A stretch of DNA of 41,907 bases from Promethearchaeota archaeon (GCA_011364975.1 RDOE01000022.1:1-41907), one strand, 5' to 3'; shown: positions 1,331-41,907, numbered from the stretch's first letter. Numbers and translations are program-made. Notes: generated by a model from the sequence alone, not told the origin.

Positions 1331-1331
1331 G

Positions 1332-1995: not shown

Positions 1996-2113
1996 TTTTA
2001 TTTACCTTTCTTTGGATTCAGTTTAGCGACTTTTAGATAGTTTTACTAAAAATTCGAACCTAAATTGATACAATTCTAATTTTATTATCTAAATAAAAGT
2101 CTAGAACCGTGCC

Positions 2114-2165
2114 TATTTAAAGCATGATGTGGCTAACCCGTGTACGAATACATAAAGTATGTAAT
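2114..2165 (-). promoter_or_regulatory. Promoter/operator block of wHTH copy 2
   Basis: TATTTAAAG-CATGATGT-N9-GTGTACGAATAC-N9-GTAAT, collinear with 1618-1669 while the flanking DNA has diverged. Confidence 0.65.
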
Positions 2166-2467
2166 AAGGGTATTATATTAAAATTTGAAATAAAAAGGTA
2201 TATTATTAAAAATTAAATCATTATTAGATATCTCCTTCGTGGTATTGAGAAAGAAACGGAATCAAAACTAAACCTAATTTCATGTATTTAATATCATGTT
2301 GGAATTTAAAAAGACTTTATTCAGTTCAGGATAATATTTAATGATTTATGTTAATATGAAGTGAAATTTTGAGAGCAAATGTCTTTGTTAAGATTAAAGA
2401 AGTCCTATAAATTATATGATCAAATAGCTTAATATTTTATTACGACTTTATGGATTGATGAGTAAAT

Positions 2468-5086
2468 TTGAAGCCTAAAAGAAGAAGATCGCTAAATGGT
2501 GTTTGGGATTTACATAATGAAAATGGTATAACAAAGATTCCAATAAATATTCCTGGAACTGTGTTTGAAGCCTTATTAAGTAATGATCTCATATCCGATC
2601 CTTTTTACGGAAATAATGAACATAATGTTAGCCACGTTTACAATGAAAATTGGATATTTGAAAAAAAATTTGATGTTGATGAAGAATTGTTATTCTACTC
2701 TAATATTATTCTTCAATTAGATGGAATAGATACAATATCTCAGGTTGAATTGAATGATAAAATCCTTGGAACAACAGAAAATATGTTTTTACAATATGAA
2801 TTTAATGTTAAGGAAGTACTTAAAGCGAAAAATAATAATTTAAAGATTTCTTTTAGGAGCCCCATATTTGTAGCATCACAATATGTTAACAATTTTAACA
2901 TAAATTTGAAAAATTTTGAAGGTGTTTCAGGGGTACCGTATTTACGAAAGGCTCAATACTCATTTGGATGGGATTGGGGCCCTTGTTTGCCTGATATTGG
3001 TATTTGGAAATCAGTAAGTTTAATCTTTTTTGAAGATATTAGAATAGATTCTTATTATATTGATTTAAAGTTTAATTATAATAACGATCCTTCTAAAATT
3101 ACTGATACAAAAAATTTAACCTCCCTAATGGTTAATTCTGTGAAAATAGATATTCAAATAAATCTAAGAACGTCTTCAAATAGAAATTTAAAAGAAAATA
3201 TTTATTTAAAATGTAATTTAACGGCTCCAGATAAAATTTCGCATGAAAAAACGATTATTATTCAAGATCAATTTCCTTCAATAGAATTCCAAATAGATTT
3301 TCCTTACCTATGGTGGACTCACGATCTTGGAATTCCAAACTTATATGATTTAGAGATTTCTATAGAACAAAATGGAAGAATCATTGATTCCAAAAAAGAA
3401 AAAGTTGGATTACGAGATATAAAACTCATTAGAAAACCCGATAAATGGGGAGAAACATTTTACTTTCAATTGAATGGAACACCTCTATTTGCTAAAGGAG
3501 CCAATTGGATTCCAATTGACAGCTTCATCCCTCGTGGTAGAAACAAAGGATTAATTGAATTGAACATCGAAAACGCACTTCAGGCCAACATGAATATGAT
3601 AAGAGTCTGGGGGGGCGGTGTTTATGAAGATGATCTATTCTATAAAACATGTGATGAAAAAGGAATTTTAGTTTGGCAAGATTTTCCTTTTGCTTGTGCA
3701 ATTTACCCCATCCATAAAGAATTTATTGAAAATGTTAAAGAAGAAGCAATATATAACATTAAGAGACTACGAAATCATCCAAGTTTAGCTTTTTGGTGTG
3801 GAAATAATGAAATAGAGCAGTTGTGGAAATTTTTACTTCAGATATCTGGATTAATTAATCCCGATATAATAAAAAATTATGAAGAGGGATATCTGTCACT
3901 TTTTAAAGATATTTTACCCAATCTAACAAAAGAATATGATCCAAGGCATCAATATTGGCCGAGTTCTGCATTAGATAAGTTTGAAGGATCAAAGATTCTC
4001 TCAAGTAATCCAAATAACCCTGAAAGTGGAGATTCCCATTACTGGTATGTATGGCATGGAGGAGCTTCTTTTAAATCTTATAGAAATTTCGACTCCCGAT
4101 TTATGTCAGAATTTGGATTTGAAAGCTTTCCATCCATGAAAACTATTAAAAATTTTTGCCCTACAGAGCAACTTCATTTCGATTCACAGATAATGGAAAA
4201 TCATCAAAAAAACAAAGCTGGTAATAAAAAAATCCATCAATATATGAAAAAAAGATTTGGAATCCCTAAAAAGTTTGAGCAGCAAGTAATTTTGTCTCAA
4301 CTGACACAAGCAGAAGCAATTGAGTATGGAGTGGAACACTGGCGTCGAAATCGAAATGAATACCATTGCATGGGAACGTTATATTGGCAATTAAATGATT
4401 GTTGGCCGGTAGCTAGTTGGTCTTCTTTTGATTATTATGGAAGATGGAAAGCTTTACATTATTATGCTAAGAGATTTTATACTCCTCTCTTTCCAAGTGT
4501 GAGAGAAGAGAATGATAAAGTTGAATATTGGATAACTAATGATTTAAGAACATCAGAAAATTATATTTTGGAGTGGAAAATCTTTAATTCGGCAAATGAA
4601 CTATTAAAAAAAGATTTTTATGAAGGAATAATCTCTCCATGCTCTTCTAAATTGTTGGGTATAGTAAATGTAGAAGATATTAACAATTCTAAAGAGAAAG
4701 CACAGCAAAATATCATATTTTATACCCTTAAAAAGGATAAGTCTGATACTTCTTATTTATATCATGGAATGAAACTCTTTGGCGCCCCTAAAAAAATTCA
4801 GATGCAAGATCCAAAAATTAAATGGGATTTTATACCATCCGAAAGTGGGAATACTGAGAGAGTTATAAAAATCAAAATTGTTTCAGAAAAAATTGCATAT
4901 TATGTTTATATTGACTCCGATGTGTTTGATTTTAAAGCATCCGACAATTTCTTTTCAATGGGACCAGGGGAAAGTAGAGTCATAACTTTATGGAAATTAA
5001 ACCCACTAGATAAATCTCAAATGGACCTGTTAAGTCTAAAGAAGGAACATTTCTATGTTAAATCTTTATTTGACTTGATATCTTAA
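2468..5086 (+). CDS. Beta-mannosidase, glycoside hydrolase family 2
   Basis: RKAQYSFGWDWGP, FAKGANWIP, NMIRVWGGG, WCGNNE (acid/base), RFMSEFGFES (nucleophile) and LYWQLNDCWP. Confidence 0.93.
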   Translation: MKPKRRRSLNGVWDLHNENGITKIPINIPGTVFEALLSNDLISDPFYGNNEHNVSHVYNENWIFEKKFDVDEELLFYSNIILQLDGIDTISQVELNDKILGTTENMFLQYEFNVKEVLKAKNNNLKISFRSPIFVASQYVNNFNINLKNFEGVSGVPYLRKAQYSFGWDWGPCLPDIGIWKSVSLIFFEDIRIDSYYIDLKFNYNNDPSKITDTKNLTSLMVNSVKIDIQINLRTSSNRNLKENIYLKCNLTAPDKISHEKTIIIQDQFPSIEFQIDFPYLWWTHDLGIPNLYDLEISIEQNGRIIDSKKEKVGLRDIKLIRKPDKWGETFYFQLNGTPLFAKGANWIPIDSFIPRGRNKGLIELNIENALQANMNMIRVWGGGVYEDDLFYKTCDEKGILVWQDFPFACAIYPIHKEFIENVKEEAIYNIKRLRNHPSLAFWCGNNEIEQLWKFLLQISGLINPDIIKNYEEGYLSLFKDILPNLTKEYDPRHQYWPSSALDKFEGSKILSSNPNNPESGDSHYWYVWHGGASFKSYRNFDSRFMSEFGFESFPSMKTIKNFCPTEQLHFDSQIMENHQKNKAGNKKIHQYMKKRFGIPKKFEQQVILSQLTQAEAIEYGVEHWRRNRNEYHCMGTLYWQLNDCWPVASWSSFDYYGRWKALHYYAKRFYTPLFPSVREENDKVEYWITNDLRTSENYILEWKIFNSANELLKKDFYEGIISPCSSKLLGIVNVEDINNSKEKAQQNIIFYTLKKDKSDTSYLYHGMKLFGAPKKIQMQDPKIKWDFIPSESGNTERVIKIKIVSEKIAYYVYIDSDVFDFKASDNFFSMGPGESRVITLWKLNPLDKSQMDLLSLKKEHFYVKSLFDLIS

Positions 5087-5202
5087 AATCTACTTTAAGT
5101 AACGATATTTTTAGAAATAATTTTGTTATCTAAAATAAGAAATTTTTGGATTTATACTAAAAAATGCTTAAAAGAAGAGTAGCTAACGGTTAGATCTCTT
5201 AA

Positions 5203-5248
5203 TATACAACAAATATGTATTAGTCATTTATATAGATGCAATCTATAT
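5203..5248 (+). promoter_or_regulatory. Putative promoter/operators of the wHTH gene at 5318
   Basis: TATAC-N9-GTATT (5203-5221), TATA-like TTTATATA (5227-5234) and the overlapping inverted repeat ATATAGAT-GCA-ATCTATAT (5230-5248). Confidence 0.45.
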
Positions 5249-5317
5249 TCATCAAATAGCCAAGGCTTTTATTTATCAAAAAATATATATGGCAAATTAT
5301 AGTATTTTAAATTAACC

Positions 5318-5782
5318 ATGTCAATAACGTATGAAGAATTTTTAAAAAAGTATCTGATCGATGATTTTAAAACAAATCTAAAGCTCACTGGCCGTAATAA
5401 AATTGACTTCTATAACGATATTGATAAATTACTAGGAATAATATGCAGAATCTTTGATAAGCTTACAAGTATTGCACCAATGAGAGGCGGGCAAGTATTA
5501 ATGGCCTTAGCAAAGCTATCGAAGCCAGGAGTTGTTATAAATAAGACAGATATTAAAAATAATTTGGATATTGATAGACTGGAAAAATTATATTATGCGT
5601 TCGATTATTTAGAAGAACATAATTATATTAAGATTGAGAAAAAAACAGAAAAATTCCACATCATTAGGTTAAATGAGGAAGAGATTCCTGATCTCAAAAT
5701 ATTTCGCGAGATCGTTCAAAAATATTGGACATCCCCAGAAGAAGAAAAAGAAAAGGCAAAGCGATGGAGCGGAGAAAAGTGA
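5318..5782 (+). CDS. Putative winged-helix DNA-binding protein
   Basis: GQVLMALAKL...INKTDIKNNLDI..LEKLYYAFDYLEEHNYIKIEK..KFHIIRL follows an HTH plus beta-wing pattern. Confidence 0.6.
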   Translation: MSITYEEFLKKYLIDDFKTNLKLTGRNKIDFYNDIDKLLGIICRIFDKLTSIAPMRGGQVLMALAKLSKPGVVINKTDIKNNLDIDRLEKLYYAFDYLEEHNYIKIEKKTEKFHIIRLNEEEIPDLKIFREIVQKYWTSPEEEKEKAKRWSGEK

Positions 5783-6768
5783 TAAATAGCACAAAAAAAT
5801 ATTCTGAACTCAGTTTCGAAGACGAGGAGAGTATGATCACCTCGGTAAAGATCATTAGATCAGAATATTTTAAGAAAGCTATTAAATCAGGGATTTGCAT
5901 AACTGCAATTTTAGCGGTTGCGATTAGTTATTTATTTTATGGATTTTTACCCAATATAGCAAATGATTCCATAGTCGTAGTATCGCCTAAGGGAGTATTT
6001 TCACTCGACTTAACGTTAAACTGGGCATTATTTAGTACGTCTATTTTTTTGGTGATTTATTTAATAAAAATAACTTATATGAAATTTACTCCCTCTCTTA
6101 TATCCTATATCAAGAATGAAACGAATTATATTGGGTTTGAATTTAGAAAGAAATTTGAGAGTATTTTCTTGTTTTTTATACTTAACATAATTTCAATAGC
6201 ATTATTGTTTTATTTAGATCTTAATAGGGTTCAATTTGACAATACGCCAATGTCTCAACTAATGCAAACCATTATATGGATTTATTTATTCATTAGTTTA
6301 ATCCTACCTATCGTATGGATTTTCATTAATGATAGATTTATAATTAAAATTAAAGATAATTTTTACATACTCTGTGATTTGCGGTACAACATCAGAAAAA
6401 GAAAAAGTCATGATCCTAATTTACTCGGAATTTTACTTACCTCTAATAAATTATGTTCTAAGTTTAGTAAATCTGGAAAGGATATGCATGATGAAATCTC
6501 TCAATATCGATGGTTACGACGTAATGATACTTCAGTTATCTCACCATATCTTCATTTTCAAGAGTTTTCAATTCCTTTTAATTTCCAAAAGCAATTTCTT
6601 AATATTGTAATGGCTTTAAGTGACTGGCAAAATAAGTACGATCATAATTTAGACACTTTAAATTACTACTTTTCTACATCTTTTCCCTATCATAAATACA
6701 AAATTAAAAAGTATCAAAAAGATAATAGAGAAGATCAACTTCTCTTCTTTAAGTTCTCAAGATTCTAA
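5725..6768 (+). CDS. Hypothetical 4-TM membrane protein (true start probably near 5764-5779)
   Basis: Four hydrophobic segments and a soluble C-terminus. It overlaps the upstream wHTH gene and is followed by a T-rich tract. Confidence 0.65.
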   Translation: MDIPRRRKRKGKAMERRKVINSTKKYSELSFEDEESMITSVKIIRSEYFKKAIKSGICITAILAVAISYLFYGFLPNIANDSIVVVSPKGVFSLDLTLNWALFSTSIFLVIYLIKITYMKFTPSLISYIKNETNYIGFEFRKKFESIFLFFILNIISIALLFYLDLNRVQFDNTPMSQLMQTIIWIYLFISLILPIVWIFINDRFIIKIKDNFYILCDLRYNIRKRKSHDPNLLGILLTSNKLCSKFSKSGKDMHDEISQYRWLRRNDTSVISPYLHFQEFSIPFNFQKQFLNIVMALSDWQNKYDHNLDTLNYYFSTSFPYHKYKIKKYQKDNREDQLLFFKFSRF

Positions 6769-6774
6769 AATAGC

Positions 6775-6793
6775 TTTTTCTTTTTCTTTCTTT
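6775..6793 (+). terminator. T-rich archaeal terminator
   Basis: Pyrimidine tract TTTTTCTTTTTCTTTCTTT immediately after the stop codon, between convergent genes. Confidence 0.4.
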
Positions 6794-6889
6794 AACTTAA
6801 TCTTGTATAATATTGATTTTTAAGTATTCTTCGAATCATAAAAGATGACTTATTAATAATTGAAGATAAAAAAAGTAAGAAAAGTAGAA

Positions 6890-7540
6890 TTATATAAAGA
6901 ATTTCTGCTGAAGCATAACATATTCGTTATAATCTACGAATTGTGTTTCTACCAACTCAAAAACAATCTCAAATAATTGTCTAAGTAGTTCTTCAGGAAA
7001 GGCTTTATGTTCAAAAATAATATCACAGACTAATTCTTCGGTTAATATTTGGGAGTTAATTGGTTGATGATATATTAAAAATTTCATCATTTCCTCATCT
7101 ACTCTGGTCTTTACTATATTCTTGATTAATTTTAAACTTAAATCTCGCTTAGGATCTATAAAATATGGAAAATTCATATCATCGAGGATTTTAATATAAC
7201 CTATGGTGTTTTCTATTTTATCTACCGTATATTCCAATGATGAAATTTCACATTTAAATTTATGACAAAATTCCTTCTTTGTTTCATGAGCAGGAAAGGC
7301 AAATGGATGGCGAGTTACAATATAATAGGCTGCAATAAAGAACTTATAAAGGTTGTGAGGGATTTTAGATTGTATCTTTAAATATCTATAAACCAAAGAC
7401 ACTGCATCTAGTAAAAATTCATTATTGATCTTGAATTGTTCTAGAAATTCTTTCCCATCTTTTATTAAATTAACTGTTATGCGTTCCTTAGTGTTCAATA
7501 CTTCATAATTAGGGGTATATAGCTCTAACATTTTACACAC
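6890..7540 (-). CDS. Hypothetical protein with a cyclin-box/TFIIB-repeat-like segment
   Basis: AVSLVYRYL...FFIAAYYIVTRHP...ETKKEFCHKFKCEISSLEYTVDKI resembles the TFIIB/cyclin repeat pattern AAxLYIxxR..P.T.KE. No Zn ribbon is present. Confidence 0.55.
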   Translation of the reverse strand: MCKMLELYTPNYEVLNTKERITVNLIKDGKEFLEQFKINNEFLLDAVSLVYRYLKIQSKIPHNLYKFFIAAYYIVTRHPFAFPAHETKKEFCHKFKCEISSLEYTVDKIENTIGYIKILDDMNFPYFIDPKRDLSLKLIKNIVKTRVDEEMMKFLIYHQPINSQILTEELVCDIIFEHKAFPEELLRQLFEIVFELVETQFVDYNEYVMLQQKFFI

Positions 7541-7621
7541 ACGCTTTTTCTATTTATGAATTTTATGAATTAATGAAGTGATATACAGATACTATTATTA
7601 TAATATCAATATAACATAAGT

Positions 7622-7683
7622 TATATTTAAATGTTGCAGTGCTACATCTTCGCATATGATGTGCATCACATAGATTTAAATAT
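7622..7683. promoter_or_regulatory. Symmetric divergent promoter with central inverted repeat
   Basis: Outward-facing TATA boxes TATTTAAA (7624-7631) and TTTAAATA (7675-7682) flank ACATC-N9-GATGT (7644-7662). Confidence 0.6.
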
Positions 7684-7739
7684 GAAAAATTCTGTTAATC
7701 ATGTAGCAATTAATTTTTGTCGTCACATAATTAATAACA

Positions 7740-8186
7740 ATGCCTCCCAAAACCAAGGAAGAAATAGAAAAAGAACGGAAAAAGCCGAAATTGCCTAGAA
7801 TAACAGTAAGTCTAGATGATTTTGATGAGCTAATAATTAGCAAATTAGTTGGATTTGAGGGGCAAACTAAATCTGAAGTTATTAGAAGTATTATTAAAAA
7901 ATGGATAGGCACGAATTCTGAAACTATTCAAAGGATTTATGGAATCAGATTTGAAGACGTAAGACGGGAAATACAGCTATTACAGGATGAAGAACAGCTT
8001 CAAGAAAAAATAGAAAAATTACCACAATTCTTTAAAAGAATCAATAAAATTGAAATAGATAGACTTTCAAGCCAATTAGATCTCAACTCTCAAACTTTAG
8101 TCAATCTTATTCTTGAAAATGGGGATCAGTTAGAGAAAAAGGGACTTAATTTAGTTATTGATGGAGAATTCATAATAAAAGAGTGA
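7740..8186 (+). CDS. Ribbon-helix-helix (CopG/Arc-like) regulator with C-terminal HTH-like region
   Basis: PRITVSLDD...SKLVGFEGQTKSEVIRSIIKKWI is a classic RHH pattern; the C-terminus reads IEIDRLSSQLDL...DGEFIIK. Confidence 0.75.
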   Translation: MPPKTKEEIEKERKKPKLPRITVSLDDFDELIISKLVGFEGQTKSEVIRSIIKKWIGTNSETIQRIYGIRFEDVRREIQLLQDEEQLQEKIEKLPQFFKRINKIEIDRLSSQLDLNSQTLVNLILENGDQLEKKGLNLVIDGEFIIKE

Positions 8187-27851: not shown

Positions 27852-28670
27852 GTGATGCAAATTAATGAATCCGAATCGTTTGAGCACCTTCGAATTAAAG
27901 AATTCCTTTTTGAAAACTTACCGCTAGAGAATAATTTAATTGAAATTAAACAAGAGTACAATATAGGAGGGCGTAAAGCAGATTTATTTCTGCTATTACC
28001 TAAAACTAAAAAAATTGTTATAGAAATTCAGCATTCAATAATTCTTCAAAAAGAGTTATTACAACGTACTCAGGATTATAATAATCATAATTGTTATGTA
28101 TTATGGTTATTCAACGGCAATTCATTTGGTCGTTATGCTCACATTGATAGTGCTGTGCAAGTTTATAATTTTGAATTAATATCGCAGTCACTTTATAAAG
28201 GAAGAGTCTATTTTCTTAATGTTTCTAAATTTGGACTGATGAATGCAATATACACTTTATATTTTGCACCATATTATGAAATAAAACAATTCAGTAATGG
28301 TAAAACTCATCTTGTACAATCTAAAACCAAAAAAAGCATTATTCCTTACACGATAACTTCATTAAAATTTAAATTGTTTAAAAATAAAGGCTATAAACTT
28401 GTAAAATTTGACGATATTGATATAAGAAGCAGATGTATCTTAGATATTAAAACATTTTTATCTAAATATCCTTATTTAGAAAAGAAGCTAAACCAAGAAA
28501 ATGAGTTAAATGCCCATCAAAAGAAACTTTTTATTATCATAGCCAAATTTGCTCCAATTTACGGAATCCATTTAACATATAATATTTTAAAAAATCTAGG
28601 CGTTGTTGAGCGAAACGATTTCAATTTCATGAATTTAACCTACGATTATTTATTTAAGAAGATTCAATAA
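27852..28670 (+). CDS. CoiA-like PD-(D/E)xK nuclease
   Basis: ESFEHLRIK, RKADL, VIEIQHS and RTQDY...VLW. Confidence 0.8.
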   Translation: MMQINESESFEHLRIKEFLFENLPLENNLIEIKQEYNIGGRKADLFLLLPKTKKIVIEIQHSIILQKELLQRTQDYNNHNCYVLWLFNGNSFGRYAHIDSAVQVYNFELISQSLYKGRVYFLNVSKFGLMNAIYTLYFAPYYEIKQFSNGKTHLVQSKTKKSIIPYTITSLKFKLFKNKGYKLVKFDDIDIRSRCILDIKTFLSKYPYLEKKLNQENELNAHQKKLFIIIAKFAPIYGIHLTYNILKNLGVVERNDFNFMNLTYDYLFKKIQ

Positions 28671-31389: not shown

Positions 31390-32553
31390 CTATTTCCTTA
31401 GTAATCGCTTCTGAAATACTACGTGCTTTCTTCGAAGGATTGAATGAGGAAATATCGTTTTAATGGCTCTATCATTATTAGACCAGATTGTTGTACCTTC
31501 TATATAATCAACACCTTTCATACGACACATTAGTTGACCTATATTATTTAAAGCCGAAAAGATTCCTTTTCCTGCATATTCTTTCTTTATCATAGCAGTA
31601 TCCACATTCGTATGGGTTAGTTTCTCTTCATTCCAGAGTTGATAAAGATTAGGTAAGGCCATAATCATTCCTACCAACTTTCCTGTGGTCTTATCAAATG
31701 CCATTGGACAGCAAGGAACTGATTTCTCAATGTCTGTATTATTATGAATTTCAATAAATCGAGCACTTTCGAAATAAACAGTTGGATCAATTTCAATTAG
31801 TTGACTTGTAAATTTTTTATAGGTCTCTCGATACGATTCTATCATCTCTTCTATTCGAGATTTTCCCCCAGGTGCATCTGCTAATACTGAATAAAAAGAA
31901 TTCCTGGCAAGATCATAAATTTCATCCTTCAAATCAACTATTTCATCTACAGAATGAAACCTAATAATGATATTTTCGTCCAAATCTTTTCCATGTTCCC
32001 AAGATTTTTGTACAACTTCTACACAGGAATATTCTGATTCTGGAATATAACCTAACTCTGTTAAATATCCAAATTCTTTCATCTCGGGGGAATTAAAAGC
32101 AACGCCATTCATCATTGGGGCACTATGTCCTAATATCTGATATCCTACGCCACCAATATATTTTGGATAATTAATAGGACCACGAAGTTTTTTTAATTTG
32201 TTTTCTCTTACATAATGTTCACAAGCATCCATAAGTATTCTACATGATTCAAAATCGCTAGCATGAAGCCATCCGAATGTAGCACATTTCATTCCATAGC
32301 TTTTATACTCAGGGTCTATTTGACATACTACAAATCCAGTTGGAATTTGATTTTTGGTAAGAGTGAATAACTTAAGATTGTAATCAGTATTATTAATCTT
32401 TTTTTGTAGATAAGTGGCAAGTTCTAAGATAATACGAGGCCTTAATTTATCATCAGGGACATATAGAAGGCTATTTAATGTATTTATTATATCGAAGGGA
32501 TTTCTTGTTATACTTAAATCAACAATAGGTGACTTATTCGTTATAAGTGTCAT
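31390..32553 (-). CDS. Tandem-GNAT N-acyltransferase of the YghO / bacterial ceramide synthase-like family
   Basis: ATFGWL...ILMDACEHYVRE..KKLRGPIN...G...P....FN...ELGY, then VGMIMALPNL, KKEYAGKGI, YIEGTTIWSNN and HVVFQKRL. Confidence 0.75.
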   Translation of the reverse strand: MTLITNKSPIVDLSITRNPFDIINTLNSLLYVPDDKLRPRIILELATYLQKKINNTDYNLKLFTLTKNQIPTGFVVCQIDPEYKSYGMKCATFGWLHASDFESCRILMDACEHYVRENKLKKLRGPINYPKYIGGVGYQILGHSAPMMNGVAFNSPEMKEFGYLTELGYIPESEYSCVEVVQKSWEHGKDLDENIIIRFHSVDEIVDLKDEIYDLARNSFYSVLADAPGGKSRIEEMIESYRETYKKFTSQLIEIDPTVYFESARFIEIHNNTDIEKSVPCCPMAFDKTTGKLVGMIMALPNLYQLWNEEKLTHTNVDTAMIKKEYAGKGIFSALNNIGQLMCRMKGVDYIEGTTIWSNNDRAIKTIFPHSILRRKHVVFQKRLLRK

Positions 32554-32644: not shown

Positions 32645-33877
32645 TTATTTTATTTTAATATTTAAAAGATCTAGTAATTCCCAACCTTGAGGAAGAAGTT
32701 GTATATGCTCCACTTTCCCCTCATAATAGTTGAATACAATTTGATCTTCAAACTCGCCCGAAATTTTGTTGTAACTCCATGCGGGTGTATATCCCCTTGC
32801 ACGAAATCCAAAGTTATAAAAAATTTGTTGCTGCTCAGGATTATAGGCAGAAACGAATACCTCCACATATCTAATATTATTTTGAAGCATACTTCGTTTT
32901 AATTCTGTAAGATATACATAAAGTTCTTCCAAGGATTCTACATGATACTTTATTTTCTCGAAATTCTGAACTGTAGTCGTGTGTAAGTATAAAAAATAGG
33001 AGGAGGACTCCTTGATAAAGCATTGATAAAATTCATAGCCATATTTGTCTTTAATGATATCCATCCGATAATTTTCTTGGAGATTTCTTATTTTCTTAAA
33101 ATTTAGTTTTATTTGAGGTTCTACAATCTGAAACCCTCCGAGATGATATATACCATCGGAGTGAATATAACTTTCTAAAGCATTGCGAATTAACTGCGGT
33201 TGTCTACGTTTTCTTAGTATATCCAATGCATTTTCACTATAATTAACACATAGCACATCAGTTTCTACTTGATTGTAAAATACGTCCTTATTCGGAAAGA
33301 CCGCCAAAGTATTAAGTCCACAAATACCCGTAGAATACTGAGAAGAGGCATGAGCCGTTCGGTTTTCGCAATACCAAATGTCTATTACTTCTCGGTAAAT
33401 AGAAAACGCCCAATAGGAAGAACCAATTATGGCTTTAGTGAAATCCAAAATCCCTTGATATTTTTTTTTAACCATTAACGCACCTATATACCCCTTACGA
33501 TTATCAAAGTCGAGATAGCATTTAAAACACCCTCCAATCTCTTTATCCATCATAAAAAGGATAAAGTTGTATTCAATACTCTGTATCATCACTTCTACCT
33601 TTTCTTCATCTAAAAAATCGAGATAGGGATACGATTGGTTATATACTTCTTCGAAAATTTCCACCACATCTTTTGCTTGCTCCGGTTCAGCAAGCACTAA
33701 TTTGGGGGCAATTTTGGTTTCACTCTCTCGAGGATCAATCAAAAAATCTAATGTGATACCTGTCTCGATATCAAGGTCTATAACTCCCCGAAATGTATCT
33801 AAAAATTCATCTACTGTTCTAGGAAAAAGTTCGTCATACTTAATAACAGGCTCAATTAATAATTCTTGAGTAATCAT
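32645..33877 (-). CDS. Tandem-GNAT-like acyltransferase
   Basis: EIFEEVYNQSYPY, GYIGALMVKKKYQG, CENRTAHASSQ, and a second degenerate GNAT half (QIFYNFGFRARGYTP). Confidence 0.7.
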   Translation of the reverse strand: MITQELLIEPVIKYDELFPRTVDEFLDTFRGVIDLDIETGITLDFLIDPRESETKIAPKLVLAEPEQAKDVVEIFEEVYNQSYPYLDFLDEEKVEVMIQSIEYNFILFMMDKEIGGCFKCYLDFDNRKGYIGALMVKKKYQGILDFTKAIIGSSYWAFSIYREVIDIWYCENRTAHASSQYSTGICGLNTLAVFPNKDVFYNQVETDVLCVNYSENALDILRKRRQPQLIRNALESYIHSDGIYHLGGFQIVEPQIKLNFKKIRNLQENYRMDIIKDKYGYEFYQCFIKESSSYFLYLHTTTVQNFEKIKYHVESLEELYVYLTELKRSMLQNNIRYVEVFVSAYNPEQQQIFYNFGFRARGYTPAWSYNKISGEFEDQIVFNYYEGKVEHIQLLPQGWELLDLLNIKIK

Positions 33878-34052
33878 TTTTTGAAGGATAACTTAGTGAT
33901 AATATATATCTTACAGGTTATTCCTTACATTTATCACGAGTATATAAAGAAAAATATTGAGGAAGGTCATAGCTGACAATTTTGTTTTCAATTTTTCTTT
34001 TAAATACATTCGAAAAATTAAAAGTTTAAATAATTTGGAATTTGGACTAAAA

Positions 34053-34880
34053 ATGTTTATTAATCAACCTATACTTAATTGGACACCTCAGTATTGGGAT
34101 CATATCCAGAGAAATATTGGAATTATATCGTTTGAAGAGCAAGAGATCATAAGGACTTCCAAAGTTGCAGTACTCGGTGTAGGTGGGCTTGGTGGTACAG
34201 TTGCAGAGAATTTGGTAAGAGCAGGCTGTCAAGACATTGTAATTGCCGATAAAGATACATTTGATGCCAGTAATCTTAATCGTCAACTCTGTACCTTAGA
34301 CGATATTGATCATTATAAGGTGGATGTAATCGAAAAATTTCTTAAGAAAATCGATCCTGAAGTTAAAATCACTAAATTTACTATAATATCTCCTGATAAT
34401 ATCGAAAATGTGTTAGAGGAAGTAGATGTAGTTGCACTTACCTTGGATGGCCCTATTACTTCTATTTTAATTGAACGAGAATGTCGAAAAAGAGGGATTC
34501 CGATGTGTGAAACCTGGGCAGTACCCTTGCTCTTTTCATGGTGGTTCAGTGAAGGGAGTAAGTCCTATGAAGAATTATACGATTTGCCTACCCAACATCT
34601 TTCTAATCAAGAATTATTTAAAGTGAAAGATCAATTGAGTTTAACTTCTTGTAAATCTCTTTTTTCTAAGATAATTACCATGTTAAGTGTGGAAGCAAAT
34701 TATGACCGCGAACCCGGCGCGTATGAAATGATGATGAGAGAGCAAGTCGGAATTCGCTCTTTTGCTCCCATTGTACGTCTCACTGCAGATTATCTAGTAA
34801 TGGAACTTATTTTTGCTGGGATTTTAAAAATAAAATCTATGACATTAGCCCCTGCTTATAACGAGATTAATTATTTTTAA
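34053..34880 (+). CDS. ThiF/MoeB/E1-like adenylyltransferase (no Zn site)
   Basis: RNIG, GVGGLG, DKDTFDASNLNRQ and KVD; no CxxC pairs. The likely start is ATG 34053 behind a TTTAAATA box (the ORF track starts at 33957). Confidence 0.9.
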   Translation: MFINQPILNWTPQYWDHIQRNIGIISFEEQEIIRTSKVAVLGVGGLGGTVAENLVRAGCQDIVIADKDTFDASNLNRQLCTLDDIDHYKVDVIEKFLKKIDPEVKITKFTIISPDNIENVLEEVDVVALTLDGPITSILIERECRKRGIPMCETWAVPLLFSWWFSEGSKSYEELYDLPTQHLSNQELFKVKDQLSLTSCKSLFSKIITMLSVEANYDREPGAYEMMMREQVGIRSFAPIVRLTADYLVMELIFAGILKIKSMTLAPAYNEINYF

Positions 34881-34933: not shown

Positions 34934-35845
34934 CTAGAAAAAATTATTAATGATCTTACAGCCTATAGAGGCAATAAATGTATCATTATTGAATATCTCG
35001 GTTATAAAGTCAATTAAAAAAGTACGGATATTAGATTTATGAGTTGTTACGATATCTTGATTTAATTCTTGTTTTAATAAATAGCATATGAATTGAAAGT
35101 ATGTTATATAAGCATGGTCTACATCTTCATTGGAAAGTTTATAAAGCGAATGAGATAAATTGTTCCTAACCATAAGCAGCTTGACAACAGCATCCCTAAG
35201 TTTCTCTGATTTAACGAGATGTTCAATTCGTTCGAGATTTGTTACCTTTTCCCCTTCCGGTACGCTAAATCGATAATCATGATATTCTGTTAGAGTGGTA
35301 AAGAATCGTTGGTAGAACTGATAATCACTGCGATTAATAGTCCCATCTTCGTTAGTTAGAAATACTAATAACCAGTGGTTAATATTAATTGCATTCAATG
35401 CTCTTTTAATTTCTTCCTCCCAATTTATACCTGTATTACTATTGAGAGATGTAGGAGTATGAGTAGGAGTTATTCCAACCTTCTCTTCAAGAGTGAGTAT
35501 ACGTGGCACCAATGCTTGTAATAATGCTTCTCGTTCATGGAGTTGTCGGTTTAATTTAATTATTTCTCCATCATTTTGAGCATTGCCATCAATTTCATTT
35601 ACTGCATAATTTCCATCAGAATTAACTTTTTTAGCATAAAAGGGAAAGAACCGCTTTAAATTATTCAAGATAGTAATTCTTGATTGGAGAAGATATTCCT
35701 TTAATTCGGTACTAGTAAGTTCTCCTGTAGTAAATTGGTTGATTTTTTGCTTCAGTACCTTTAGATCTTCAGGATTTAACACAAATTGTTCCAATAGAGT
35801 CTGAAGTACATTGTCTTGATTTTTTTTCTGTTCTATTTGGGTCAA
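34934..35845 (-). CDS. Coiled-coil protein with C-terminal HEPN-like domain
   Basis: Heptad segment IIKLNRQLHEREALL...LEEKV, a low-complexity linker, and RxxxxH motif RNNLSH in a helical domain. Confidence 0.55.
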   Translation of the reverse strand: MTQIEQKKNQDNVLQTLLEQFVLNPEDLKVLKQKINQFTTGELTSTELKEYLLQSRITILNNLKRFFPFYAKKVNSDGNYAVNEIDGNAQNDGEIIKLNRQLHEREALLQALVPRILTLEEKVGITPTHTPTSLNSNTGINWEEEIKRALNAININHWLLVFLTNEDGTINRSDYQFYQRFFTTLTEYHDYRFSVPEGEKVTNLERIEHLVKSEKLRDAVVKLLMVRNNLSHSLYKLSNEDVDHAYITYFQFICYLLKQELNQDIVTTHKSNIRTFLIDFITEIFNNDTFIASIGCKIINNFF

Positions 35846-35850
35846 GTGGT

Positions 35851-38800
35851 TTATCCCTCAATGAATAATTGAAATTTATCAAATATGCGATTATATTGTT
35901 CATATAGTTCTGTACTGTAGATTCTTAAAACCTTACCATTGGGAGTTATAGCATCGCACATCTCTAAGAAAGAAACGAGCTCTAAATAGGTCATAGGAAA
36001 TCCATCCACTAAAGTAAGCTCATTTAAGAATGTTAAAAGGTCATTTCGAGAAATATCATAAGATACCTCATAGTAGGATTTACAAACGTTATACATAAAT
36101 TTAGGAAATAAATTTTTAGCTATCTGAATTGCTTGGGTAAAATCAGTGTGAATAATGTGGTTACTCATCTGAAATAATTCGTAATATAGAATAGTACTGT
36201 AATGTTTTATCAACACCTCCATTAATCTGTTATTATCAAGGGTAGTAATAGGAGTAACTAAGGATTCTTCATCATTGACTTTTTTATTAAAGCTATCACA
36301 TTTAATTTCGGTTTCCTTAATTGGAACATCAACTTCCGGGAGTTCAATATATACTTGGGCATTTCCTTCTTTTTGAGTTTGAAAATAGTCATCTAAAGCT
36401 CGTTGATAATAAGGTCCCACAGCATAGGATGTACGTATGGATTCCCCGCCACTTGCTCTTCGGGGGTGTGCTTCTATGAGATATCTTTGTTGGATCAAGA
36501 TATTAAAAATGGAATCTCGAATTTCTTTAATCCGTTTTCGGTTTTTAGTGATAGTTAGCAATTTAGGACGAATAACGTTATATAATTCATCCTTTACTTT
36601 AGATTCGTATAAATGGCCCACTTTATCGGCTGTCTTCATCATCTTCAAAAATTTAATAATATCTTCAATAAGGGCTTTATATTTTCCAAAATCACGTTCC
36701 AGTATGGTGGGTTGAGTTTTTTGTAATAATTTTCGTTCGCTATCTTCGATATCATAGCCTTGATTATTCATATATTGAATAATTTTTTCCCAAGGCATAG
36801 AGGGGATAGCTTTTAAATCTTGAAACGCAATTTTAATCGGAAAAGGCTGATATATATCTTCACGCTTTACCACTGCTTCATCCAGACTCATATCAGACAT
36901 GTATTTCATCTGGAAGCTTTCATTGCGACTAGAGCTATACATCCCTTTGCCATGAAGTGCCTCCAATCCCATAAGGTTGCCCATAAGCGCGAAATCCCGT
37001 TTATCCGTAGTCTTTAAGGCGACATAGTTAGTAAAGAAGTTAAATACATTTTGATGAAGAAAATGTAGCTGAGAAGTAGTCCCTATCAGTCCAAAATTGC
37101 GTTCAAGAAGCGGTACTAAAAATTTATCGATTTTATCATATGTGCGCTGTTTATCTAAGAAGTAGGCTTCGAATACCATATCAAGATTAGGAAGTAGAAG
37201 AAATTTAGGAATAAAATTTTCCCCTGACTGTAGATAATGAATAAATTTAGCTAAGATAAGAAAACTATAAAAACACTGTGTATTACGGTTGAGGATTCCC
37301 GAAAGATCAATAATAATAGTTTTTTCATTGGTAAGGAAGGCATTTGGAGACATATTTTCAGATTGATCTATAACATGAGACCCAATTACATTTAGGTCTT
37401 GAGGAATAAACTCCTTGAAAAAATTAAGTACAGTGTCAGTAGTTGGAGAACGCTCCCAATTTTTTCTCGTATCCAAATCTAATCCTATGGTTTGGATATC
37501 TTTAGTAATATGAAGTTCAGAAGTCTTAGATATAATCGTATTGCGAAACAGATCCATAGCATGATCATCTTTCTTATAACATAACGCATAGGCATCAAAC
37601 ATATAGTCTAAGTATCGCATATTATCTTTATCGTATGGTAAATCTGAAGAAAGAGGGTTAATGGTCAAAGTCTTTTTAAGTTTAAAATAGAGAAATCTAT
37701 CCGCATATTGGGTAGATTGACACAACGAAATAAGGCGAGACCAATTACCTGTAGAGTCAAATATAATAGCAGGATATCCTTTTTGTATTAATTCAAACAC
37801 AATTTTCATCGCAGTAAAATCTCTACTTGATGCTGTTCCATTGGTGATTAAGAGGGAATGTAATTGCTTTAAAGTAAATCCTGTTACAGTTTCCTCTTCT
37901 AAAATCTCGGTATTAATAGTATGCCCAATACTAATAAAATTCTCAAGGTGGAGTGGGGTATTAAATTCTGCGCCTATCCGTGTCTCCATCCCTTTCTTAA
38001 AGATATCTGCTATCATTATAAGATAGATAACGGTTTTTCCTTGAAAAATTACGTAATTAAGATGGGTGCCATTTTTCCGTAAATATTTCTGCTTAACCAC
38101 TTCAAACATGACTCCTGACTCCAATCTACTTTTGGCTAAAGGCGTAAGATTATAATTAAAATAATTTTGAGCATAACTAACGGAAAGGATTGTCATATGT
38201 TGACGAAGAATGTTTTCTATGGAAAGGGCTTTTTCCATATCTGGAGATGAGGAGGGTATTGAATAGTTAGTTGAAATAGTAAAGAGTGTATTCCACATTC
38301 CATAACGAAGTTGAAACCAATTTTTTGCATCTGTCGCACATTGGATTCTTGATATGAATTTTATTTGTTCCTTCTCGGTCATAGCTTCAAATCCTTCTTT
38401 ACGGAAATGATGATAATCCAAAGGAACTAATTGATAGGTTATGCAGTAGGTTGTTGCAGAAGTGGTAATAGCCTCATAAAATTTATCTGGTTTACAATAC
38501 GGAGGGCTAGCTACATATTCAAGGTTACCCATCTTCACTCCCCCCATTAACCGATTCTCTATTTGATAAAATATAGTATCGGGAAAACGGTGGAATCTAA
38601 AGAAAATGGTATCATAAAAAGGGTCAATAATTTGTATTTCTTCCGAATGAAAAATAGAGTCTTTGAATCTAAATGTAAATAAAGAGCGATTCCATATATT
38701 ACAAAGCCCTACAAAACATCCCGTGCCAATAAGAAACCTTATTAGATCAGAAAGCTGATATAATCCAAGTAGAATAGATATAAAGATTGAGATTCCTAAT

Positions 38801-39672
38801 AATACACTTGTTTTTCCAAATATTTCTATTATGTGAGAAACTTTTACAGGTATATAATCACTAAATGCTTTCTGTTCTTGGGACTGATTAAAAAAACAAG
38901 TACGATACGCATTTATTAAACTAACCCTTCTTAGACAAACTAACTGAAAATGATAGAGGTTAGATTTCTTTGCTTGTTTTAACGCCTCACTATACAAGAA
39001 GAGTTTCTGAACCATCTCTTCCAATTTAATTCTGGTTAAACATCCTTCAATTTCATGAAATACTGCTAGATATAGACAAATCTCAAATGGCTTTGATTGA
39101 GAAGGGGAAAGATCAATACCTTTGGATTTTTTAACCACTTGATATGTGAAGGGAATTTCGGTATTAACCAGTGCTTTTATAAATTGATATAAATTACCAT
39201 GGACATTTTCAGCAAGTATAGTAATTTGAAAAATTCGCATTGCTGTAGTTCGTTTTTCTTTAGTATTGGTAATACACATAATAGAATCATCCGCAGAATG
39301 ATACCAAAAAATAATATCCTTAAAGAGAGGAAAGCTGCTCCTACGAAAGAGGTGTTTCATCCGGAAAAATTCACTATGAAATACAAATGAAATCATCAGC
39401 ATAACAAGCGTAGCAATTCCTAGTCCAAATGCTATATTTAGGGTTGCGAGCATCAAGGTTATAGCGATCGTCAAAAAGAGTGCAACTCCAGAAATCGCGC
39501 GAGGTAACGTCTCTTTAAGATTCACATCGCTATAATGAGGAAGAAATCGCTCCCAAATATGATCATATTCCTCTTCTTTGGACATTTCTTCGCTACTCTG
39601 CTTGTGTGAGGTCTCTTTATGTTTTTTAATTTTATTAAAATCTAGGACATAACCATTTTCTATATTTTTCAT
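35851..39672 (-). CDS. Membrane-anchored VirB4/HerA-FtsK-superfamily protein with degenerate ATPase motifs
   Basis: HSLLITNGTASSRD (Walker A position), AIIFDSTGNW, INPL, TIIIDLS, FLLLPNLD (Walker B position), FGLIGTTSQ, NYVALK; two N-terminal TM hairpins. Confidence 0.7.
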   Translation of the reverse strand: MKNIENGYVLDFNKIKKHKETSHKQSSEEMSKEEEYDHIWERFLPHYSDVNLKETLPRAISGVALFLTIAITLMLATLNIAFGLGIATLVMLMISFVFHSEFFRMKHLFRRSSFPLFKDIIFWYHSADDSIMCITNTKEKRTTAMRIFQITILAENVHGNLYQFIKALVNTEIPFTYQVVKKSKGIDLSPSQSKPFEICLYLAVFHEIEGCLTRIKLEEMVQKLFLYSEALKQAKKSNLYHFQLVCLRRVSLINAYRTCFFNQSQEQKAFSDYIPVKVSHIIEIFGKTSVLLGISIFISILLGLYQLSDLIRFLIGTGCFVGLCNIWNRSLFTFRFKDSIFHSEEIQIIDPFYDTIFFRFHRFPDTIFYQIENRLMGGVKMGNLEYVASPPYCKPDKFYEAITTSATTYCITYQLVPLDYHHFRKEGFEAMTEKEQIKFISRIQCATDAKNWFQLRYGMWNTLFTISTNYSIPSSSPDMEKALSIENILRQHMTILSVSYAQNYFNYNLTPLAKSRLESGVMFEVVKQKYLRKNGTHLNYVIFQGKTVIYLIMIADIFKKGMETRIGAEFNTPLHLENFISIGHTINTEILEEETVTGFTLKQLHSLLITNGTASSRDFTAMKIVFELIQKGYPAIIFDSTGNWSRLISLCQSTQYADRFLYFKLKKTLTINPLSSDLPYDKDNMRYLDYMFDAYALCYKKDDHAMDLFRNTIISKTSELHITKDIQTIGLDLDTRKNWERSPTTDTVLNFFKEFIPQDLNVIGSHVIDQSENMSPNAFLTNEKTIIIDLSGILNRNTQCFYSFLILAKFIHYLQSGENFIPKFLLLPNLDMVFEAYFLDKQRTYDKIDKFLVPLLERNFGLIGTTSQLHFLHQNVFNFFTNYVALKTTDKRDFALMGNLMGLEALHGKGMYSSSRNESFQMKYMSDMSLDEAVVKREDIYQPFPIKIAFQDLKAIPSMPWEKIIQYMNNQGYDIEDSERKLLQKTQPTILERDFGKYKALIEDIIKFLKMMKTADKVGHLYESKVKDELYNVIRPKLLTITKNRKRIKEIRDSIFNILIQQRYLIEAHPRRASGGESIRTSYAVGPYYQRALDDYFQTQKEGNAQVYIELPEVDVPIKETEIKCDSFNKKVNDEESLVTPITTLDNNRLMEVLIKHYSTILYYELFQMSNHIIHTDFTQAIQIAKNLFPKFMYNVCKSYYEVSYDISRNDLLTFLNELTLVDGFPMTYLELVSFLEMCDAITPNGKVLRIYSTELYEQYNRIFDKFQLFIEG

Positions 39673-39681
39673 ATTTAATTA

Positions 39682-40501
39682 TCAGCTCTTTGAATACCAT
39701 TTTTTATTTATAAACGCAAATACAAGGATCATTAGGATACATAATAACAATAGCCACCCAATTACTGTGGTGACAAAACCAAAGACTAACATTTCAATAA
39801 TGCACACAATTCCTAATAGAAGAAAAGTGAATATTACACCTAAAACTCCATAACGTCCCTTCTTTAGCGCTAATAAGGATTGCCTTTGAATTAGCTTGTA
39901 ATGATTTTTCTAAGGATTTTAGCTGTATAAGACGCAATAGGGTCTCTTGGTCTAGCCTATGCTGTAATTCTTTGATAAGTTGTTTTTGATCTTGGCGTAT
40001 TCGATGTAAAAGCAATGGTTTTATAGGATTGTTACCATAGGACTTAGAATAGTTAAACTTACCTAGAAAAGACATCAGAGAAACAGTTCTATTTTCCATA
40101 ATATCGCTATCTTTAAGATGTTCTTGTAGATTTGGAACTTGCATATTTCTGAGGTCAAAATAGAGTTGTGTAAGTTCTTTTAAATAAATCGCGGGAAACT
40201 CATCCTCTCTTTTTTTACGATCAAATAATGTTTCCACCACTTTGATAGTAGTAATTTGGGATGCGATGAAAATATTGAGTTGAAAGTTTAACTGAAAAAT
40301 TTTATTGATCAGTTCCATATATTCTGAGAGTTTTTCATTAGCTTCCTTTCTTCGAGGGATAAATCCTAACTTATATCCAATCTCGTCTATTACATTAGAT
40401 ACAAAAATATAAAGTGCGTTAGTAGCATTTCGAATTTGGTTTACTTCAAGACTAAGTTCGATAAACCGTTTTAATTTATTATCGGAGATTGATTGAGTCA
40501 T
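39682..40501 (-). pseudogene. Helical protein whose C-terminal TM hairpin lies in a shifted frame
   Basis: ORF 40501..39794 ends in a non-natural-looking tail. A second frame open from about 39909 encodes ...RYGVLGVIFTFLLLGIVCIIEMLVFGFVTTVIGWLLLLCILMILVFAFINKKWYSKS* ending at 39682. Confidence 0.6.
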
Positions 40502-41268
40502 GGGATTATATTCCTCCGGCTTTTAATTGCTAAGAATTGCTGATAAATTTCCTGGGCTTCTAACTCATCGGAAGTTGGTAACGCTTTAACTTTTCCTGTA
40601 TTCTTAGTTTTATGTTGTTGACGATGAATTAATTCTAGTTCAGCGATAAATTTATCCAAATCAAGCACATCAGAAGATAAATTAGTAATATTGTGAAATT
40701 GCGATTCAATTTCAAAGGTATAAGCGAATTTGTAATAAAATAAAGTAAAAGGAAAACAGCAAGCAAACGCGATCACTTGAAGATAATAGCCTATCCCCGC
40801 CATAAAATAAAAGACTAAATCTAACTCATAATCATATAGAAGTAAAAAGGGAAATAGCAACTGATTCGGAAACAAATACATTATAGGAAAAATAACCATA
40901 AAAAAAATTATCATGAATATCAAACCTAAATTGATAACAGCAAATCCTTTTGCATACTTTAGTTTGGAAGGTTTCTCAGAACTATGAAATACTGCTCCAA
41001 AGGACGAAAGGGTTAACATTAGGATAAAAAAAATCATAAGCGGTATCGGGATTGTAGCATTTATCGGTTTATACCAGGTATTTAGTTCAGTATCTAAACG
41101 AGATGGAGAATACCAGTCATAAAATAGATTATAGCTCCAATCCACTAATACCGCATTAGAACTATCAATACCTTGAAATACATACCAATCCATAAATAAC
41201 GATATAAAAGCGAGGGCTATCCCCATTAAGAAACACACTCGAATAGAACCTGGTTGGTGACTTGTCAT
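40498..41268 (-). CDS. 4-TM membrane protein with cytoplasmic tail
   Basis: SLFMDWY...; four hydrophobic helices, GIGYYL and LDLDKFIAE; ATGA overlap with the next gene. Confidence 0.75.
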   Translation of the reverse strand: MTSHQPGSIRVCFLMGIALAFISLFMDWYVFQGIDSSNAVLVDWSYNLFYDWYSPSRLDTELNTWYKPINATIPIPLMIFFILMLTLSSFGAVFHSSEKPSKLKYAKGFAVINLGLIFMIIFFMVIFPIMYLFPNQLLFPFLLLYDYELDLVFYFMAGIGYYLQVIAFACCFPFTLFYYKFAYTFEIESQFHNITNLSSDVLDLDKFIAELELIHRQQHKTKNTGKVKALPTSDELEAQEIYQQFLAIKSRRNIIP

Positions 41269-41363
41269 GATGATTCTTATTATTCCTACATAACCTTATT
41301 GATCTTTTTCATTGATCCCACCTATTTAAAGAAAAAATTCTAAAAATGTAAAAAAGCTAGAAA

Positions 41364-41906
41364 TTAGTCTTCGAGAAAGGAGCTATATTTATTCAATAAA
41401 TCGCAATCATTAGAATTGTGTTTTTCCTGTTGACTAAGATCAGCTATCTCCTTTTGGAATTCTCCACGCGAATGATCTGTAGAATAACATTCAAAGTTCT
41501 CCAATATAATATAGCTTGCGGACTTCCCTAGACACTCATACCCAAATTGGACCAATATTTCATGAGAATATTCTTCTTTTAATACTAACAAATCCGCTTC
41601 ATCTAAGTGAATTTCTTTTTGATAATATGGTGTATTAAACTGAACAGCTAAGTTTTTTTTCACCAGATAAAAGCGATAATAGATATATACCATAGTAAGA
41701 GTATAAATCCCTATGACAGCATAACCGATGTTCAAGAAAATTCGCAATAAATAAAACCAATTAGTAATAAACATAATAAAAAGTAACAAGGTATACCCTA
41801 ATGTTAAAAAAGAGGTTAATCGTAGCTTACGATTAAAGGAGCCGGATGCATCTTGATACTGTTGAATGGCAGTTTTTTCATGAACATGAGTCTCAAGTAT
41901 TTCATA
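41364..41906 (-). CDS. Membrane protein, 5'-truncated by the window edge
   Basis: The frame stays open to the window end (YEILETHVHEK...); TM hairpin. Confidence 0.65.
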   Translation of the reverse strand, partial: YEILETHVHEKTAIQQYQDASGSFNRKLRLTSFLTLGYTLLLFIMFITNWFYLLRIFLNIGYAVIGIYTLTMVYIYYRFYLVKKNLAVQFNTPYYQKEIHLDEADLLVLKEEYSHEILVQFGYECLGKSASYIILENFECYSTDHSRGEFQKEIADLSQQEKHNSNDCDLLNKYSSFLED

Positions 41907-41907
41907 T

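Follow-up and report, generated by a model that had tools for sequence, protein, structure and literature searches.

A chromosomal operon conserved in one family of Asgard archaea and encoding a membrane-anchored HerA/VirB4-class protein with an apparently destroyed ATP site

HerA, VirB4 and FtsK proteins are textbook motors, so it is unusual to find an entire family in which fold, membrane anchoring and a fixed partner set are conserved but ATP has been given up. We describe such a family from a stretch of Promethearchaeota archaeon DNA (GCA_011364975.1, RDOE01000022.1; hereafter the window), which spans an entire contig (C120, 41,907 bp) from a 3.74 Mb genome in 200 contigs with 30.6% GC. 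Five co-oriented minus-strand open reading frames (ORFs) at 34934-41907 represent four genes and a fraction of a fifth and make up, with near certainty, most of a five-gene operon on the chromosome, A-B-C-D-E, in which D encodes the HerA/VirB4-class protein. D has its P-loop fold in common with VirB4/TrwK (from the R388 type IV secretion system, 8rtd, 8rtb and 7o42, and from T. pseudethanolicus, 4ag5), which works with VirB3, VirB6 and VirB8, i.e. with polytopic and bitopic or hairpin membrane partners like those encoded with D; in VirB3-VirB4 fusions transmembrane (TM) hairpins precede the soluble part, as they do in D. The fold, together with a profile bridge to Pfam DUF87, is also shared with HerA proper (HerA-NurA; 4d2i, 7f6d, 9x1l), and a nuclease-type partner (E) is encoded beside D as in HerA systems. 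The Ced system of Crenarchaeota (CedA, CedA1, CedA2 and CedB) has, according to the main text of PMC9905601, a VirB4/HerA-like protein alongside one polytopic and two 2-TM proteins, with CedB being the ATPase that powers DNA import; the word 'Asgard' does not occur in that main text. The reading of the Promethearchaeota operon that we favour, with a probability of roughly 0.4, is that it specifies a passive, motor-less, membrane-bound DNA-handling platform that feeds or guards recombination. The genes are:

41364..41906, minus strand: gene A, C-terminal 180 codons only; ORF open at the contig end
40498..41268, minus strand: gene B, 256 aa; ORF for a polytopic membrane protein
39682..40501, minus strand: gene C; 235-aa ORF at 39794-40501, with a TM hairpin in another frame that ends at the TGA 39682-39684
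35851..39672, minus strand: gene D, 1273 aa; HerA/VirB4-class membrane protein, judged ATP-dead from its motifs
34934..35845, minus strand: gene E, 303 aa, TTG start; ORF

The features of D discussed below are:

36793..37953, minus strand: P-loop-like domain with the HerA/VirB4/TrwB fold, residues 574-960 (VIA-align, Foldseek, profile link to DUF87)
37819..37854, minus strand: degenerate Walker A LLITNGTASSRD, residues 607-618, aligned to LFIAGITGSGKT of a true DUF87 ATPase
37180..37203, minus strand: degenerate Walker B FLLLPNLD, residues 824-831, aligned to LFVVEEAH
38878..39519, minus strand: module 1, residues ~52-265, TM hairpin plus alpha/beta domain (hhalign, hydropathy)
38083..38832, minus strand: module 2, residues ~281-530, TM hairpin plus alpha/beta domain (hhalign, model secondary structure)
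36403..36540, minus strand: winged-helix region, residues ~1045-1090, with an invariant HPRRASG..S..TSYAVGP wing (model)
35854..36231, minus strand: C-terminal helical bundle, residues 1148-1273, with a weak likeness to the HEPN fold

An AlphaFold2 model of D residues 340-1273 (55-row alignment; mean predicted local distance difference test score [pLDDT] 76.7) was compared with ~48,000 PDB representatives. Residues 565-964 superpose on DndH-C (7es4_A; Z 25.1, 330 aligned, root-mean-square deviation [rmsd] 4.1), the C-terminal domain of VirB4 (4ag5_A; Z 24.6, 337 aligned, rmsd 4.0) and HerA (4d2i_B; Z 23.7, 326 aligned), followed at lower Z by HerA-NurA (21.7), TdpAB (21.0), TrwB (20.5), defence-type HerA complexes (19.6-20.2) and FtsK (13.4). 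RecA/Rad51 gives Z ~10-12, well under the HerA/VirB4/TrwB scores, for which 326-357 residues are aligned. Foldseek returned 129 matches at E≤0.001, headed by TrwK/VirB4 (8rtd_T, E 2.7e-10) and HerA (4d2i_B, E 4.4e-10), and on these model-based data VirB4, HerA and DndH cannot be ranked as nearest to D. The alignments with TrwK exceed its C-terminal domain (688 columns by Foldseek; 469 residues at rmsd 12.6), and for the part of D ahead of the P-loop domain the model shows a mixed alpha/beta structure, with no evident HAS barrel.

Sequence searches place D in the same superfamily over a considerable distance. Neither phmmer nor a profile search against PDB sequences gave a match for D, and hhalign of the full-length D alignment with the genome's own HerA (a single sequence) gave a probability of 0.14. 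A word-index search recovered 64 family members, in none of which Pfam recognises a domain and of which the complete ones measure ~1250-1340 aa, and a profile of the P-loop-like domain (residues 574-960, 56 sequences) matched only 169 proteins at E≤0.001 among 1.84 billion representatives. When 41 distant profile matches were scanned with Pfam, DUF87 was found in two (E ~3e-10), winged-helix families in six, AAA in one and nothing in 32. The two DUF87 proteins, which the D profile matched at E 1.5e-7 and 4.8e-7, keep canonical GITGSGKT/GVTGSGKS and VVEEAH/IIEEAH motifs, and for one of the two, hhalign against the profile gave a probability of 91.8 (E 7e-7, 293 columns). By fold and by sequence profile the D core belongs to the HerA/FtsK/VirB4 (ASCE P-loop) superfamily; this and the two TM hairpins agree with the initial annotation made from the window, which had described D as a TM-anchored HerA/VirB4-like protein.

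In the alignment with DUF87, NGTASSRD stands in D for the Walker A GITGSGKT, with Lys changed to Arg, Thr changed to Asp and the glycines gone, and LLLPNLD stands for the Walker B VVEEAH, with the acidic pair replaced by Pro-Asn (Pro-His in most relatives). Within the D family N611, G612, P828 and D831 are invariant and R617 is nearly so. GK[ST] is missing in 116 of the 118 representatives that cover the P-loop, the two exceptions being a true DUF87 protein (P0212) and a distant relative (P0183); P0215 is not among the flagged rows. Judged by these motifs the ATP site of D is destroyed in essentially all relatives, and D therefore cannot be a CedB-type import ATPase. The replaced Walker motifs accord with the earlier description of D as a pseudo-ATPase. 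That description had taken IIFDSTGNWS to be the Walker A remnant; this segment is the strand that follows it (IVFDWKGDY in DUF87), and the true remnant is LLITNGTASSRD.

D carries further modules on either side of the P-loop-like domain. Modules 1 and 2 are duplicates of one another (hhalign probability 98.5, E 2.5e-15, 212 columns). The predicted winged helix consists in the model of a helix at 706-722 and strands at 726-729 and 743-746 (model numbering), and winged helix-turn-helix (wHTH) Pfam families occur at the matching place in 6/41 distant D relatives. The C-terminal bundle superposes on 2hsb_A (Z 9.4, 117 aligned), which is under the caution mark for helical bundles, and has no conserved R..H; it is conceivable, from the model, that it acts as a catalytically silent HEPN-like partner for the domain in E.

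Gene A supplies the other candidate DNA-binding module. Its part in the window encodes a TM hairpin followed by a short C-terminal domain with a conserved ...KYSSFLED tail. Complete A proteins in relatives are ~600-720 aa and contain, from the N- to the C-terminus, a RadA-type HhH2 domain, a long acidic linker, a conserved middle domain, the TM hairpin and the short end. The closest relative of the window is locus L001 (Candidatus Hodarchaeum mangrovi), whose D is 78% identical to the window D; its 716-aa A ortholog matches HHH_5 at E 1.7e-11, with the RadA N-terminus closest (E 1.1e-8). The first 32 residues of the window's A sit at the very end of a sister contig of the same genome (G000:C8:10400-10495), so that ~1.5 kb of A is merely unassembled between the two contig ends; in relatives this portion is the acidic low-complexity linker region. 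The A tail (window 41364-41390; C-terminus of the L001 ortholog encoded at L001:3147-5297) is among the most conserved parts of the protein (Y707, F710, L711, D713) and by its sequence looks like a docking peptide for some partner.

Upstream of A in L001 there is a 114-aa ORF and then a divergent 833-aa helicase with DEAD, Helicase_C and archaeal helicase domain 4 matches, and L003 has the same arrangement. The best match of the helicase is to Hel308 (E 1.5e-100), below the NCBIfam cut-off. The initial annotation had the operon running off the contig edge and suggested extending it in search of an active ATPase, relaxase, pilin or integrase. The operon does leave the window, with the start of A on the sister contig; beyond A, relatives have only the divergent Hel308-like helicase, and the extension thus yields the HhH2-TM protein and then that helicase. 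Family scans of the operon and of the upstream flank in L001 and L003 found no relaxase, coupling protein, active ATPase, pilin family or integrase.

The five ORFs are present where they had first been reported, and the tight spacing that had been noted is real: the B stop overlaps the C start (ATGA, 40498-40501), 9 nt separate C from D, and D and E are 5 nt apart. The 9-nt gap ahead of the D ATG starts at the TGA that closes the TM-hairpin frame of C, not at the stop of the 235-aa ORF; C had evidently been read through a 44-bp break, hence the 9-nt figure. Relative to L001, 44 bp are absent from this assembly at 39879|39880 and C is frameshifted. Near-identical contigs from all four public runs (4/4, from four studies; one of the runs may be the window's own source) have 44 extra letters exactly between 39879 and 39880, from which we infer that C is intact in the environment and broken in this assembly only. 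C is 284-289 aa in most of 51 loci, with a ~230-aa cytoplasmic helical part and a C-terminal TM hairpin; no Pfam family matches it, and 38 gene C proteins compared with Pfam gave no consistent family. B has 4-5 hydrophobic segments and a ~80-aa cytoplasmic tail, and has no family match in Pfam, PADLOC, NCBIfam or PHROGs.

TM segments and topology are predictions from our own Kyte-Doolittle scan. The scan gives two TM segments in A, four to five in B and four in D, the last arranged as two hairpins; C ends in a hairpin that is visible in the L001 ortholog and lies out of frame in this assembly. This is in line with the TM-containing partners that had been proposed. Because of the hairpin topology, all large domains of the operon proteins should face the cytoplasm by this crude measure. 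Nothing points to the secretion apparatus that the initial annotation had entertained.

A scan with one genome per species yielded 77 D loci. Among those with enough flank, C was found upstream of D in 50/66, B in 50/64 and A in 48/63, and the same flanking genes and chromosomal position are kept in dozens of genomes down to ~35% identity of D; with the gene order conserved so widely the arrangement is not a chance one, and the synteny across Asgard genomes for which a test had been proposed is present in ~50 of 64-66 testable loci. C is missing in 14 loci, which form a paralogous class with other partners, including a 5-TM protein after D. In a phylum sample of 301 genomes 78 match, and in the window's own family 55/68 sampled genomes do. 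Full-length D is almost absent outside this family (one genome), other families having short or split relatives. The relatives are recorded as Promethearchaeota, Hod-, Hermod- and Thorarchaeota. Judging by the GTDB grouping most of them are probably members of a single family, and we therefore claim no phylum-wide spread. Some genomes have two or three D loci, and the window genome has one. The simpler forms in other families are a split pair (282 aa + 520 aa) and single-module proteins of ~770-850 aa.

Some individual loci have features of their own. In the paralogous D loci (L033, L038, L046, L044, L057, L061, L062 and L035) D is preceded by a 171-186-aa and a ~366-aa protein and followed by a 5-TM protein of 231 aa, and in L046 and L057 a stop codon splits D. 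In L089 (G038:C1:2530000-2543000, 1223-7947) the split D comes after genes for RadA and for a protein with an M28-peptidase domain and after a 150-aa ORF, with an Imm5-like protein just downstream; its 520-aa part keeps an acidic Walker-B-like FLDDAEE and has GGSHKERT at the P-loop.

Gene E consists of a constant and an exchangeable part:

35471..35845, minus strand: N-terminal conserved helical module of E, residues 1-125, its constant part
34937..35428, minus strand: C-terminal domain of E, probably HEPN-like, residues 140-303, with R227-N-x3-H232 at 35150-35167

A hidden Markov model of the N-module (~115 aa) matches an ORF in 51/77 loci. In 48 loci this ORF immediately follows D; 43 of them pass a strict distance filter, and in the other five the stop-to-stop frame has an earlier start. 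About 12 of these 48 adjacent genes are long, ten with the window-type domain (read from stop-to-stop lengths) and two, in L015 and L059, with an NYN RNase domain in place of the HEPN-like end (RNase_Zc3h12a E 1.9e-13; 2/22 scanned). In the motif R227-N-N-L-S-H232, R227 and H232 are invariant and N228 is nearly so in 53 long-form sequences. The model of E has pLDDT >90 over residues 140-303, and its residues 148-264 superpose best on HEPN toxins (7ae2_A, Z 7.3, 112 aligned, rmsd 4.5; 5yep_B, Z 7.1), with Foldseek giving the HEPN toxin 7ae6_A at E 0.066 and prob 0.97; HEPN domains of Csm6, AbiA, Las1 and Cas13 follow, and none of the matches passes the marks for helical bundles. Curated Pfam HEPN models remain below cut-off (HEPN_Swt1 E 0.22, DUF4145 E 0.13; none of 22 members at E≤0.1), a profile of the C-terminus found no relevant match among PDB sequences, and the ESM Atlas gave weak leads only (Csm6 HEPN 0.85 and RnlA 0.83, both under 0.9). 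A word-index search with the domain profile returned 80 proteins, which are without exception of the E type and lack Pfam domains. Since two aligners give HEPN domains as best matches with scores under the marks, the C-terminus of E is probably, though not provably, HEPN-like in this genome. Complex prediction for D 574-1273 with E 1-296 gave 0.00, 0.44 and 0.00 in three runs, which speaks neither for nor against binding.

The HEPN toxins of HEPN-MNT pairs (7ae2, 7ae6, 5yep, 8xdj), Csm6 and AbiA are thus the known proteins nearest to the end of E (Z 7.3, 7.1 and 6.5), with which it shares the RNxxxH motif; it differs from the toxins in having no MNT partner and in being fused to a module encoded behind a membrane protein gene. 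Of the HEPN-like effector that had been proposed, the HEPN-like C-terminus with R227/H232 stands, with the restriction that it is optional, an RNase-type end being present in only ~12/48 adjacent E genes.

Comparison with the larger systems gives a similar mixture of likeness and difference. Unlike VirB4, D has destroyed Walker A and B motifs, a duplicated TM-hairpin module, an added wHTH and helical bundle and no match to Pfam CagE_TrbE_VirB, and its operon is chromosomal and vertically conserved. No pilin, VirB6, VirB8, coupling protein or relaxase family was found in the five proteins, the full A ortholog, the flank or the contig, remote homology between B and VirB6 not having been compared. 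To judge from the main text cited above, the operon resembles Ced/Ted in being archaeal and chromosomal, in combining one polytopic and two 2-TM proteins with a VirB4/HerA-like protein, and in its link to recombination and repair; in contrast to Ced/Ted its 2-TM proteins have sizeable domains on the cytoplasmic side (HhH2 in A), nothing pilin-like was identified, and there is no detectable sequence similarity, the B-CedA pair not having been compared. HerA-class defence ATPases (DndH-C 7es4, TdpAB 8wet, SIR2-HerA/Nezha 8j4u and DUF4297-HerA 8zir) reach Z 19.6-25.1 against D. Relative to HerA systems D lacks an ATP site and is anchored in the membrane, and it has no NurA, SIR2 or DUF4297 partner; family scans of the operon proteins gave no match to NurA. 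The five proteins have no significant match in Pfam, PADLOC, NCBIfam or PHROGs (in PADLOC-DB 2.0, 0 families at E≤1), and the locus corresponds to no described conjugative element or defence system, in agreement with its initial description as uncharacterised. We found no description of the family in the literature, the supplementary tables (asCOG-type) not being covered.

Outside the operon the window holds nothing out of the ordinary. The GC content does not change abruptly where the operon lies, and a scan for bacterial-type promoters and terminators (30 found, 39 expected) was uninformative. Scanning of 26 further ORFs of the contig revealed ordinary metabolic genes and no integrase, relaxase, transposase, VirD4-type coupling protein, active ATPase or pilin family; the initial annotation had likewise seen no relaxase, VirD4 or integrase. 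A ThiF/MoeB-type E1-like adenylyltransferase gene (33957-34880, plus strand; ThiF E 1.3e-33) is convergent to E and is kept in 18 loci. Two minus-strand genes at 31390-32553 and 32645-33877 are conserved operon neighbours (30/77 and 36/77 loci, respectively) whose products have no significant family and only weak GNAT hints; the second product is ~640 aa in some loci and 410 aa in the window. A 272-aa protein encoded at 27852-28670 (plus strand), ~6 kb off the operon, has a CoiA competence nuclease-like domain (PF06054, E 1.8e-13).

A layout like that of Ced/Ted and of the type IV inner-membrane core, with Hel308 and RadA as neighbours, makes DNA reception the most likely role, and we prefer a passive platform because the motor of this Ced-like set is dead, while DNA-binding modules are included and a pilin is not to be seen. 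D would oligomerise on the cytoplasmic face of the membrane, like its ring-forming relatives, with B and C holding it there, and would serve as a passive platform or gate, not as a motor. Double-stranded DNA could be held by the winged helix of D and by the HhH2 arm of A on its long flexible linker, and would be received or handed over at the membrane for recombination, any pulling force being provided by another protein. E may dock through its N-module, adding RNA cleavage as an output where a nuclease domain is present. Several points weigh against such a platform. DNA binding, the oligomer and the contacts among A to E are predictions only, HhH and winged-helix domains can also bind RNA or protein, the cytoplasmic placement of the large domains comes from the hydropathy scan, and the adjacency of Hel308 was established by family scan in L001 and L003. 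To our knowledge every VirB4, HerA and FtsK system depends on its motor, which the dead P-loop removes, and the operon encodes no replacement ATPase; among its proteins no pilin or sizeable extracellular domain is visible. The Arg kept at the Lys position makes nucleotide binding without hydrolysis conceivable. Finally, the swappable nuclease end of E and the many defence-type HerA matches fit a conflict system as well.

Such a conflict system would be an undescribed defence in which a dead HerA-like ring senses invading DNA and E or another output cleaves RNA, following an abortive-infection logic. The presence of the anti-phage HerA-class proteins DndH-C, TdpAB, SIR2-HerA/Nezha and DUF4297-HerA among the best structural matches of D, the exchange of the E C-terminus between two RNase-type domains, and the fact that a genome can have as many as three paralogous D loci whose partner genes vary all suit it, but none of the five proteins has a PADLOC match, ~36/48 adjacent E genes are without a nuclease domain, and the neighbours in the window are metabolic genes. 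The stable chromosomal position, with constant flanks to ~35% D identity in a family where 55/68 genomes match, is unlike that of patchy islands, and the HerA defence systems known to us need ATP hydrolysis; we consider defence less likely than the platform, but the main rival to it. A housekeeping tether of the chromosome, or of one locus, to the membrane (in segregation, division or nucleoid organisation), formed by a catalytically silent cousin of FtsK/SpoIIIE, would account for the predicted cytoplasmic large domains, for DNA-binding modules on membrane anchors and for the high prevalence and vertical-looking conservation, and a static role suits a dead motor. It leaves the RNase-type ends of E unexplained, a core cell-cycle function would hardly be expected of proteins whose full-length form is nearly confined to a single family of the phylum, and division genes are not linked in the loci inspected, all of which makes it a quite doubtful proposition. 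Membership of a conjugative or integrated mobile element with strict type IV secretion is very improbable: VirB4/TrwK is the top Foldseek match and the partner set is rich in TM proteins, but both operon boundaries are known from relatives, scans of the operon, of the remaining contig and of the L001 and L003 upstream flanks brought up no relaxase, VirD4-type protein, active ATPase, pilin family or integrase, the GC content has no step at the operon, the same chromosomal neighbours recur in dozens of genomes, and PHROGs searches are blank. There is also a slim chance that the operon descends from a type IV/Ced-like conduit for DNA, has lost its motor and has been domesticated as a core chromosomal device of one Asgard lineage. 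A membrane gate would then be formed by B together with the TM hairpins of A, C and D, and on top of it the ATP-dead VirB4-like ring would receive incoming or outgoing DNA. By way of its HhH2 arm, A would convey this DNA to Hel308 and RadA, where it would enter recombination.

If a conduit of this kind existed, Asgard archaea would exchange DNA from cell to cell with helicase or binding ratchets as the driving force instead of VirB4. Special interest attaches to the membranes and the DNA biology of Asgard archaea, on which almost no experiments have been done so far, and the family raises the question of what a 'dead' translocase ring does. Its HhH2 arm on a membrane anchor, its winged helix and its exchangeable RNase end are testable parts, and D, with split, fused and duplicated forms across families, provides a worked example of domain accretion. 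What the operon brings to light may be either a new way in which archaea receive DNA at their membrane or a defence system of new design.

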